NCBI GenBank assembly: GCA_000934665.2
Contig: KZ538153.1
Location: 1 to 64,000 of the forward strand
Source of the DNA: Catajapyx aquilonaris
Taxonomy: Eukaryota
Length of the DNA: 64,000 nucleotides
Direction: 5' to 3'
Shown here: piece by piece, positions 55,662 through 57,861 of the stretch
Layout: each line of letters opens with the position of its first letter
How positions within the stretch are numbered: the stretch's first letter is position 1
Program-made: the position numbers and the translations under genes
The notes under the pieces: model-generated
Told to the model about the DNA's origin: nothing
The model's input: only the letters and a program-made list of their open reading frames with translations
The model's database searches: none

Positions 55662-56355
55662 ATGATGGCCCACATCAGCAGTTTTGGTTTCTATTTGTTG
55701 GCCACCCTTCTGTTCATGTCAGGGGTCAATCATTCCCTGGCCCTGAAAGATATTGCAGTCGAAAATATTCCCAGTGCTGTTGACACAAAGGAACCCAGTG
55801 AGGAAGACAGACTGGAACTGGCCATACAATATTTGATGAGAGCTGTGGTGGATGGATTTGCTCGAACAGGTAATAATAATTGTCAAGTCTTGTTTTCAAG
55901 TCCTTTGAATATGTTCTTCCTTTTTTTCATCATGCAGCACGAGAAGTGAGAGAAATCAAGGATGAAGTGAAATTATTAGATGAGGAAATCACTTCATTAC
56001 GAGAGGGAAAGGTATCATTAAGAGAGGATACGACATCCTTAAAAGAGGATATGACATCCTTAAATGGAGGAATGAAATCATTAGAAGACGAAATGAGGTA
56101 AGTGAGCAACCCCGTGTCAACCCAACTGCTTTTATTGCGACCAATAGTCAAGGGTAAAATAATCGTGATGACATCATACTCATCCTTTCCAGACATGTCC
56201 GATTATGAAGCGATGTGTGTTCGGGCAATTCGAAATTATTAAGAAGGTGGTTTAATTGAACATGTGCAATATTCATTCTAGCCATGAAGTGGACAGAATC
56301 ACCACATCGTTGACGGATATTATGACCAAAGCAAATGTCTGCTGGACACATTCTG
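55662..56355 (+). CDS. Signal peptide plus coiled-coil exons of unknown family (55662-55869, 55938-56097, 56193-56246 with an internal TGA, 56282-56355); probable 5' partner of cathepsin 14
   Basis: Hydrophobic N-terminus (FYLLATLLFMSGVNHSLA) and heptads (VREIKDEVKLLDEEITSLRE..TSLKEDMTSL). Splice phases 1-2-2-1 are mutually consistent. Confidence 0.65.
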
Positions 56356-56477
56356 GTAAGAAAACATGTCATTGCTTACTGTGGTAACTGACATGACTGA
56401 TATTTAAATCGAAGATATCTTAAATTATTACCTTGGAAAGAGTGTCCGATGTGATTTTTTTTCTCTCCTTGCCTTAG

Positions 56478-57861
56478 ATTTTGCTTCTCTCATCAACATC
56501 AGACACCGAGTGCAAGATTATCAATGGGAGACATACAAGGTTTGTTTTGTTAAAAGGAGTTTCGGCCAAACTTATCCACATCTACTCAATGTTCGTAGAT
56601 CAAGCTGGACAAGAATTACTCGACTATTGCCGAGGAACTTAAGCGTCGTTTGATCTACGAGGACAACATGGCCTACATCAACAAGCACAACTTGGAAGCA
56701 GCCCAGGGGAAACACTCCTTCACACTCGGAGAAGGCCCCTTCACAGACATGGTACGATTCTGAACCGTACATAAATTCAGGATATTCATGACATGTATTA
56801 TTTTGCAGACTAATGAAGAGTATCGCAAAGCAACTCGGTGCTTGTTGCCATCTGAGACTCCCAAACCATCGGACACGACACCACGAAGGTCAAGAAGGGC
56901 AGTCCCTGATAGTGTAAGTTGCACGATCAATCTGGCGAAACTTTGCGTGCAAATAATTGTGTAATAAATATTGCAGATCGACTGGAGAAATTACGGTGTG
57001 GTGGCCACTCCTCAATTACAAAAGTGCAATGACTGCTGGGCCTTCTCAAGTGTTGCAGTCACCGAGAGTCGATATGCCATTAAAACTAAAAACGCCTACA
57101 AACTTAGGTAAAGTTCGGTCTGAATTATTCATGGCTCAATATTTATGAAAAGAAATCTCTAATCATCATGCAATTTTGTTGTCATGCAATTTGGCCAAGG
57201 TAATTCAGTACTAATTATTTCAGCGAGCAGCAACTAGTTGACTGTGATGCTGACAATAATGGCTGTGATCCATCGTACATCGACAGAGCTTACAAATATA
57301 TTGTGCAAAACGGACTCGAATCCGAAGATTCATACCCATACGCAGACGGCGTTGTACGTATATATTCTTTGGCGAATTGTAACACAGCAGTTTGATCAGT
57401 TATTTTAAAAATTTCCTTTTTTAACCTCCAGCAACATCCGTGCACTTTTGATCCCAGCAGAGTAGTTGTCAGGGTTCAAAACTACAATGCTGTAGGTCCT
57501 GACCCAGAGGCCATGAGGGTCGAGATTGGTACAAACGGACCAATCACTTTTGGCATAATGTCTGCATCACGAGCCTTCCAGCTCTACGCGTAAGTCCCAT
57601 TAAATTGTCCCAAATTGAAGCAATTACTGAGAGACACTGTCTTACACTTGCAGACGCGGAATTTTGGATGACTTCACTTGCGGACCAGCACCTGACCATG
57701 CCATCACTGCCATTGGCTACGGAACCGATGGTGGTAGAGATTATTGGATTCTGAAGAACTCCTGGGGAACTGACTGGGGAGAAGAAGGATTTATGAGGGT
57801 CGCAAGAGGAAAGAACATGTGCGGTGTTGAGCAAGGAGCCTCTTTTTTCGACATTGTTTAA
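56478..57861 (+). CDS. Cathepsin L-like 14 (QKCNDCW subfamily), lacking its own ATG and signal peptide; otherwise open
   Basis: Homology to gene 11 begins abruptly at gccttagattttgcttctctc (56471). [16 protein letters not shown] and KNSWG are intact. The 3' flank (57861-58100) matches that of gene 11 (49164-49405). Confidence 0.8.

Follow-up and report, generated by a model that had tools for sequence, protein, structure and literature searches.

A candidate chimeric gene pairing coiled-coil leader exons with a start-less cathepsin copy in a tandem protease array of Catajapyx aquilonaris

The locus: a truncated cathepsin behind three leader exons

We analyzed the first 64,000 nucleotides of contig KZ538153.1 of the eukaryote Catajapyx aquilonaris (GenBank assembly GCA_000934665.2), a 64-kb stretch without any N that is referred to below as the window, and focused on a candidate chimeric gene within it. 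The window carries, on its + strand, an array of 15 cathepsin L-like genes (tblastn, with the protein of copy 14 as query), which were modeled with a purpose-written spliced protein-to-DNA aligner; each copy has seven exons, except for six in the model of copy 1, and the introns outside copy 14 (n = 83) range from 51 to 884 nt with a median of 64 nt. Copy 14 (56478–57861) is the sole array member without the ATG and signal-peptide half of exon 1, and directly upstream of it lie three predicted exons, here called the leader, that have no relation to cathepsins. At this locus, two gene parts of unrelated origin truly lie side by side, oriented alike and meeting at a sharp junction; its components, together with the closest paralog, are as follows:

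55579–55585, + strand: TATA-like heptamer, 83 nt 5′ of the leader ATG, a candidate promoter element
55662–55869, + strand: leader exon 1, 208 nt, ending in phase 1, with a tandem ATG ATG and a signal-peptide-like hydrophobic start followed by 44 residues
55938–56097, + strand: leader exon 2, 160 nt, ending in phase 2, coiled-coil-like
56282–56355, + strand: leader exon 3 in the form that preserves the open reading frame (ORF), 74 nt, ending in phase 1
56455–56470, + strand: pyrimidine tract, 16 nt, ending exactly at the homology breakpoint and adjoining the retained CCTTAG
56471–56477, + strand: start of the homology to genes 10 and 11; once exonic codons, these bases now provide a TAG acceptor at 56477/56478 in phase 1
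56478–56539, + strand: rest of cathepsin exon 1 (propeptide start), with a 3-nt in-frame insertion relative to gene 11
56599–56751, 56809–56913, 56977–57107, 57224–57353, 57432–57589 and 57654–57861, + strand: cathepsin exons 2–7, ORF intact, stop included
57862–58099, + strand: 3′ flank homologous to the 3′ flank of gene 11, end of the duplicated block
57885–57890, + strand: AATAAA polyadenylation signal of copy 14, the first such hexamer 3′ of the leader outside the body of copy 14
47752–49161, + strand: gene 11, nearest paralog of copy 14 and the type of gene from which the cathepsin half derives (homologous block 47794–49405)

As annotated here, the two halves are complementary: the leader offers a start, a putative export signal and splice donors, and has neither a terminal exon nor an AATAAA or ATTAAA hexamer, while the cathepsin half has a complete ORF and a polyadenylation signal and lacks a promoter, an ATG and a signal peptide. 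Since the ATG and signal peptide share an exon with the propeptide start in 14 of the 14 other copies, with an intron at that point in none of them (0/14), the array comparison indicates that the decapitated state of copy 14 is derived.

Homology breakpoint and the lost start of copy 14

Exon 1 of genes 10 and 11 runs without a break from the ATG through a hydrophobic leader into the start of the propeptide. The alignment of copy 14 to these genes starts at 56471 (GCCTTAG...), and all sequence upstream of this point is unrelated. By blastn, 56471–58099 matched gene 11 at 47794–49405 with 84% identity and 56471–57895 matched gene 10 with 77% identity, and no further similarity of 55000–59100 to the gene 10/11 region was detected. 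Neither a remnant of the gene 11 promoter or exon 1 in 55000–56470 nor an orphan cathepsin exon 1 in 55075–56470 was found, and no in-frame ATG occurs between the upstream stop and the junction at 56478. The break in homology at 56471 is categorical.

Copy 14 has no N-terminal signal peptide of its own, its exon 1 ATG and hydrophobic leader having been replaced by unrelated DNA, so a signal peptide is only obtainable from the leader exons via splicing. An earlier note on this DNA had claimed that copy 14 lost its ATG and signal peptide with homology to gene 11 beginning at 56471, and that a pyrimidine tract had come to lie before an exonic TTAG at the breakpoint; alignment, blastn and the lack of an in-frame ATG bear out the first of these claims, and the 16-nt tract at 56455–56470 agrees with the second. 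Runs of at least 14 pyrimidines number only five on the + strand of the 64 kb, two of them inside the leader, and by our own arithmetic (~5 runs × 10 nt in 64000 positions) a tract abutting the breakpoint is rare. Possible explanations of the pyrimidine run are that it is the native 3′ end of leader intron 3, that it marks a rearrangement hotspot, or that it is coding sequence. A 35-nt exact pattern across the junction was sought in metagenome contigs and gave no match. Judged from one assembly, the structural chimera is very probably real DNA.

Several other routes to such a junction or to a usable start were tried and discarded. Transposon capture was ruled out, as no terminal inverted or direct repeats flank either 55075–56470 or 56471–58099; a start codon inside copy 14 was ruled out, as no in-frame ATG precedes the propeptide; and spliced-leader trans-splicing with a donated AUG was rejected because an AUG placed directly at 56478 is out of frame.

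The cathepsin half is a complete proenzyme

Exon 7 of copy 14 alone matches PF00112 (Peptidase_C1; E = 1.1e-22, 81.6 bits against a cut-off of 20.7) and exon 2 matches the I29 propeptide family PF08246 (E = 6.2e-13); the propeptide helix is presumably of the ERFNIN type, its spacing having been judged by eye in the translation. A protein search with exon 7, aimed at an annotated protein of copy 14, did not find one; it gave 52 matches at E ≤ 1e-10 among 66 candidates, the best being 63% identical. The full-length model aligns to all paralogs, and the proenzyme is complete, beginning two residues past the end of the hydrophobic leader of gene 11. Of the columns conserved in the array (in 13 or more of the 14 other copies), copy 14 retains 62 of 62, including those that we take, from the family, to hold the catalytic Cys, His and Asn.

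At the amino-acid level, copy 14 is 83% identical to gene 11 and 81% to gene 10, and a sister relationship to gene 11 is favored by 255 informative sites (versus 62 and 86 for the alternative groupings), with a pairwise synonymous divergence (dS) between the two of 0.145. Copies 10, 11 and 14 have CNDC instead of CGSC at the catalytic Cys together with a one-residue deletion just before the motif (exon 4: 46122–46252, 48310–48440 and 56977–57107, respectively), a deletion that may bear on the canonical spacing of the oxyanion-hole Gln ahead of this Cys. Copy 13 also has CNDC, without the one-residue deletion.

The leader exons carry signals of a gene

The TATA-like heptamer upstream of the leader falls within the 46–96 nt range at which TATA-like motifs precede the ATGs of the cathepsin copies, and the leader N-terminus is hydrophobic in a hydropathy profile, as is that of gene 11. 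Exon 2 contains an in-frame tandem repeat of 21 nt, i.e., one heptad, at 56014–56096 (Tandem Repeats Finder; period 21, 4.0 copies). Scored with a splice-site matrix built from the 83 array introns, the exon 1 donor reaches 7.7 bits (65th percentile of true donors; 1.4% of background GTs equal or better), the exon 2 donor 10.7 bits (99th percentile; 0.03% of background GTs as high) and the exon 3 donor at 56356 9.9 bits (98th percentile; 0.2% as high), with acceptors of 10.5 bits for exon 2 and 4.3 bits (14th percentile) for exon 3 at 56281. The leader keeps 147 open codons, and its codon usage averages 0.153 per codon compared with -0.364 ± 0.17 in stop-free non-coding windows, a value reached by 0 of 385 such windows, with the predicted frame the best of three; exon 1 taken separately scores 0.266 per codon, which is likewise exceeded by 0 of 385.

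Homologs of the leader were not found at any level searched: no second copy was present elsewhere in the window, a full HMMER search of 1.84 billion representatives gave 0 matches, a word-indexed search of longer proteins with exon 1 gave 67 candidates with none at E ≤ 0.01, and the best score in a protein atlas was 0.77, which is under the meaningful level. Pfam gave no match for exons 1 and 3, and for exon 2 only sub-threshold coiled-coil families (best E 0.026). Nonetheless, the donors, codon usage, hydrophobic start and in-frame repeat together indicate that the leader is, or recently was, a gene.

A 3′ end for this gene was not apparent in the neighborhood. No AATAAA or ATTAAA occurs between 55232 and 56963, and no coding-like leader 3′ exons were seen from the end of gene 11 homology (58099) up to gene 15 (59053), an interval in which the per-codon score is -0.15 to -0.70 for the ORFs and -0.49 to -0.70 for each of the five phase-1 continuations past 58099. 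The sole ORF with a positive score in 57862–59052 (58006–58104, 33 codons, +0.25) lies within the flank homologous to gene 11.

Splice routes across the junction

Ten splice routes from the leader were tested, all with canonical GT/AG sites, and a full-length in-frame protein resulted from five of them:

Exon 3 to 56478: acceptor 1.8 bits, full-length, in frame
Exon 3 to 56415: acceptor 2.9 bits, full-length, in frame
Exon 1 to 56478: acceptor 1.8 bits, full-length, in frame
Exon 1 to 56415: acceptor 2.9 bits, full-length, in frame
Exon 2 to 56503 (AG at 56502): acceptor 4.5 bits, full-length, in frame
Exon 1, 2 or 3 to 56599 (three routes): acceptor 5.5 bits, out of frame
Exon 3 to 56503: acceptor 4.5 bits, out of frame
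Exon 2 to 56193: acceptor 8.9 bits, TGA at 56206–56208, 127-residue product

Two further features emerge from these routes:

56356–56414, + strand: candidate intron, 59 nt, ending in AAG, with CTGAC at -27 and CTGAT at -18, giving an in-frame read through the breakpoint
56193–56281, + strand: alternative 5′ extension of leader exon 3 from acceptor 56192, with an in-frame TGA at 56206–56208 that ends the protein at 127 residues

The acceptor position at 56477 scores 1.8 bits in copy 14 versus -10.7 bits for the corresponding position of genes 10 and 11, and no true site of the array has a pyrimidine tract as long as the one that precedes 56477 (16 of 17 positions). A second in-frame acceptor, at 56414, may be used instead. 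The intron that it would close has the commonest size class of the array, and among all routes only this one has branch-point motifs, which sit where such motifs peak in true introns; moreover, 56414 is the first AG after CTGAC and CTGAT, and the first AG is the one used in 29 of 34 motif-bearing array introns. Entry at 56414 leaves the 63 nt up to 56477 open in the cathepsin frame, a state found by chance in 28.5% of non-coding 21-codon windows. If 56414 were used, the pyrimidine tract would be translated and the junction would be an in-frame exon-to-exon fusion.

With regard to the earlier note, the three upstream exons in phases 1, 2 and 1 do join 56478 without a stop, with GT donors and AG acceptors in place, and exon 1 alone also joins it in frame, as had been proposed. 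The acceptor that the note saw created at 56477/56478 in phase 1 is indeed in frame and stop-free and is at the same time poor by the standard of this genome (1.8 bits). The note had also mentioned a TGA exon, the obligatory inclusion of which would speak against a fusion; the TGA exists, not in a separate exon but in the 5′ extension of exon 3 from acceptor 56192, and as this acceptor (8.9 bits) outscores the ORF-preserving one (4.3 bits), the sequence check does touch on that concern.

Constraint on the cathepsin half

Between gene 11 and copy 14, 627 nt of non-coding sequence contain 103 mismatches and 17 indels, 11 of them of a length not divisible by 3, versus 91 mismatches and two 3-nt indels across the 942 nt of exons, where no frameshift or stop occurs. 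Assuming intron-like indel rates and placing half of the events on the copy-14 branch, we calculated that drift since the split would predict ~8 frameshifts, with a probability of ~3e-4 for observing none, and that at these indel rates a phase of drift would occupy at most about a third of the copy-14 branch. The 32 changed codons on this branch miss all 62 conserved columns (P ~9e-4 if randomly placed), and the probability of no stop arising in copy 14 after 52 random substitutions is 0.105. The indel contrast and the spared columns make it clear that the cathepsin half evolved under constraint for the greater part of its branch after parting from gene 11. When gene 10 is taken as outgroup, 13 synonymous and 39 nonsynonymous changes fall on the copy-14 branch (omega, i.e., dN/dS, 0.81), against 9 and 17 on that of gene 11 (omega 0.51).

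Other features of the array and the window

Several other array members showed unusual features. Copy 8 (38328–39792) has an in-frame TGA at 39130–39132 in place of the Trp of its sister, copy 7; apart from this it has lost none of the 62 conserved columns, and its branch dN/dS is 0.72. This makes copy 8 a pseudogene of very recent origin, unless the stop is a polymorphism or a base error. Copy 1 (11121–12526) has 14 of 63 conserved columns broken, including two conserved Cys in the active-site motif (one of them catalytic) and the catalytic-site His; its ORF is intact, and it gives the impression of a cathepsin homolog without catalytic function. The first intron of copy 13 (52466–53349) is 884 nt long, against the array median of 64 nt, and contains a degenerate repeated unit and a trinucleotide run; because of this long, repeat-filled intron, exon 1 of copy 13 was overlooked by a plain search. 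The 5′ ends of genes 10 and 11 (45630–45760 and 47794–47920) are 7% diverged with alignable promoters, versus 10–40% for the remainder of the gene, which suggests gene conversion across promoter and exon 1.

Outside the cathepsin array, the window holds the following:

19004–19438, 20379–20873 and 24786–25256, + strand: three AhpC/TSA peroxiredoxin-type exons in a row (Pfam E = 2e-17, 4e-16 and 4.5e-26), probably tandem paralogs, between cathepsin copies 3 and 4
8963–10753, - strand: single open frame of 596 codons with a weak ligand-gated-channel match under the Pfam cut-off
4999–5754, + strand: C2H2 zinc-finger ORF
41384–41935, + strand: Nop52
61172–63343, + strand: cytochrome P450 exons

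Proposed origin and working of the chimera

The complementary halves, the several in-frame routes, the missing polyadenylation signal of the leader and the apparent constraint on both halves favor an expressed in-frame fusion that would encode a secreted, N-terminally extended procathepsin. We put this prediction forward tentatively, holding it to be nearly as probable as its opposite. The fusion of a coiled-coil secretory leader onto a cathepsin, as the earlier note had it, is upheld in its structural juxtaposition, its complementary halves and its in-frame joining, and is not helped by the acceptor that was proposed for it, which is weak.

The chimera would have arisen by a rearrangement at the DNA level that placed 1.63 kb of a duplicated gene-11-type gene behind the three leader exons, the copied segment beginning at codon 15 of exon 1 and ending ~240 nt beyond the stop. 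Either a partial duplication of such a gene could have landed behind leader exon 3, or a full duplicate could have been followed by one deletion removing the 3′ exons of the neighbor, the spacer, the cathepsin promoter and the first 14 codons. The lack of leader-like exons downstream and of a gene 11 promoter remnant upstream fits a deletion or a clean partial duplication; for the same reasons, a simple insertion of the leader into copy 14 was a poor fit and was set aside.

In the favored scheme, transcription would run from the leader promoter to the cathepsin AATAAA at 57885, and the exon 3 donor at 56356 would pair with the AG at 56414 or with that at 56477, both in frame, so that the splice junction would be improvised from former coding sequence or would be an in-frame exon-to-exon break. 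The product would comprise a signal peptide, a coiled-coil extension of ~120–140 residues, a complete I29 propeptide and a papain-like protease, with shorter in-frame forms possible through splicing of exon 1 to 56478 or of exon 2 to 56503. Because the extension is N-terminal to the propeptide, it would affect only the zymogen (e.g., its trafficking, tethering or oligomerization) and would be shed with the propeptide on activation. That the locus is moreover a functional young chimeric zymogen, in which one DNA rearrangement replaced the signal peptide and added an oligomerizing or tethering module shed at activation, is a more doubtful proposition and seems to us somewhat unlikely.

If expressed, the locus would be a clean, datable case of a tandem protease family gaining a targeting or assembly module by exon shuffling, with the cathepsin donor paralog and the breakpoint still readable, and would show that secretion can be restored to a duplicate born without a start; without expression, it is a truncated duplicate of an ordinary kind. 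In both cases it matters for annotation, as a gene finder would drop copy 14 or fuse it.

Alternative explanations

A number of observations weigh against an expressed fusion. All in-frame acceptors are weak for this genome (1.8–4.5 bits). The one at 56477 ranks at the 6th percentile among true acceptors and is equaled or beaten by 23% of background AGs; it is a TAG (8 of 83 true sites, compared with 69 of 83 that are CAG), has C at -5 and -6 where true sites have T and G at -7, and lacks a YTNAY motif at -45 to -12, which is present in 71 of 89 true introns and upstream of 44% of background AGs. The acceptor at 56414, at 2.9 bits, is an AAG (5 of 83 true sites), and the out-of-frame acceptor at 56598 (5.5 bits) outscores the in-frame ones. 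The most serious objection at the level of sequence is the choice between the TGA-bringing acceptor 56192 and the ORF-preserving 56281, in which the former has the higher score. The leader has no homolog among the 1.84 billion representatives searched, and its standing as an established gene is argued entirely from intrinsic signals. As to constraint, the omega of 0.81 on the copy-14 branch is indistinguishable from 1 (p = 0.30) and near that of the stop-bearing copy 8; copy 8 likewise keeps all 62 conserved columns, and hence the constraint tests locate selection on the greater part of the branch and not specifically in the time since the truncation. Finally, divergence between gene 11 and copy 14 is a mosaic (0.03–0.32 per 150-nt window), which suggests gene conversion that could help keep a dead copy open.

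Much of this is what would be expected if copy 14 were a decapitated pseudogene beside a gene relic, both halves being dead and read-through transcripts being mostly out of frame and degraded, with the halves looking intact through a recent event and/or conversion by gene 11 refreshing the cathepsin part. Among the alternatives this one survives best, and we consider it unlikely while keeping it in serious view. It accommodates the omega close to that of copy 8, the weak in-frame acceptors beside stronger out-of-frame ones and the mosaic divergence, which is compatible with conversion tracts; each phase match is by chance only a ~1-in-3 event, and the array does hold a dead copy in copy 8 with its TGA at 39130. 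It does not sit well with the 942 nt of exon without a frameshift, a stop or a lost conserved residue next to non-coding sequence with 17 indels in 627 nt, nor with a leader that retains its 147 open codons, three good donors and coding-like codon usage. The two halves are, moreover, exactly complementary and several routes keep the frame, and the truncation would have to be recent relative to a dS of ~0.07 on the copy-14 branch.

The higher score of acceptor 56192 can also be read as the mark of a leader that is a small gene by itself, with exon 2 spliced to 56193, a stop at 56206–56208 and a secreted coiled-coil protein of 127 residues, the cathepsin serving as an untranslated 3′ UTR (untranslated region) that supplies the polyadenylation signal. 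The 8.9 bits of this acceptor against the 4.3 bits of 56281, the 127-residue end of the route and the location of the nearest AATAAA outside the cathepsin body, at 57885, are in keeping with it. We nevertheless regard it as improbable: the 9.9-bit donor at 56356 and the open, coding-like sequence at 56282–56355 suggest that exon 3 is a real internal coding exon, and the constraint on the cathepsin ORF would be left unexplained. Such an mRNA, with its stop ahead of up to seven introns, would also be a likely target of nonsense-mediated decay.

An assembly or haplotype artefact, i.e., a misjoin at 56470/56471 that hides a true copy 14 with a normal exon 1, is very unlikely. Misjoins occur readily in tandem arrays whose paralogs are 77–84% identical, this junction falls at a T/C tract of low complexity, and it is known from one assembly, a further point on the side of caution. 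Against this, the join connects unique sequence to a paralog rather than one paralog to another; the leader has no second copy in the window, copy 14 is distinct (84% identity to gene 11) with its own 3′ flank running into unique DNA, and the window contains no N. Least credible of all, and extremely improbable, is a nested insertion of the 1.63-kb cathepsin fragment into intron 3 of an intact coiled-coil gene that splices across it to exons 3′ of 58099: the duplicated block does end sharply at 56471 and 58099, and AGs at 58117–58218 score 6.5–10.5 bits when the flanks are joined in silico, but the five phase-1 continuations after 58099 are short (8–59 codons) with the low codon scores given above, the five + strand ORFs of at least 25 codons starting at 58100–58700 score -0.16 to -0.65, no AATAAA or ATTAAA lies in 58100–58400, and gene 15 already begins at 59053.

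Comparison with known systems

The candidate, as an expressed fusion, belongs to a known kind of event, namely a chimeric gene formed via partial duplication or deletion. Chimeras with parallel parents result from ~10% of gene-capturing tandem duplications in Drosophila by the figure given in PMC4069613. Chimeras of such kind are common raw material, most of them without demonstrated function.

Closest in type are Sdic of Drosophila melanogaster, a DNA-level chimeric gene with documented expression and fitness effects, and the chimeras of D. yakuba and D. simulans, in which, as here, two unrelated parallel parents are joined at the DNA level with introns retained within a tandem family. The division of labor in the Sdic type is also alike, in that the 5′ parent would provide promoter, start and targeting signal and the 3′ parent the catalytic body and polyadenylation site. 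Both expression and effects on fitness have been documented in the case of Sdic and of some other Drosophila chimeras, whereas the copy 14 locus is known as sequence, with a parent type identified for its cathepsin half.

A second likeness is to jingwei of Drosophila and TRIM5-CypA of the owl monkey, in which a catalytic or binding module was captured behind host exons and joined to them by splicing. There too a start-less incoming module is read via a splice from upstream host exons, which in TRIM5 include a coiled coil. These genes contain intronless retrocopies, whereas copy 14 keeps all six introns of its family and therefore moved as DNA and not as a retrocopy; furthermore, its acceptor would be a former exonic site, unless the host exon is read through.

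Within the C1A cathepsin L family, copy 14 resembles paralogs 10 and 11 in its seven-exon structure, I29 propeptide, catalytic Cys, His and Asn and all 62 conserved columns, and differs in having no ATG or signal peptide of its own and, if the fusion is read, an extension of 120–140 residues ahead of the propeptide. A literature search on cathepsin fusions or coiled-coil extensions found nothing relevant among the papers listed, and a coiled-coil-extended zymogen, if true, would be a domain architecture not described for papain-like proteases. A parallel is offered by C1A proteases in which the proregion is naturally extended at its N-terminus, such as cathepsin F, whose extension is cystatin-like; there too a zymogen that is secreted or lysosomal bears an extra module ahead of the I29 propeptide. 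The extension of cathepsin F is old, conserved and of known fold, whereas that of copy 14 is an orphan putative coiled coil; if expressed, the fusion would bring a further form, a zymogen with a coiled-coil extension, to those known among papain-like proteases.

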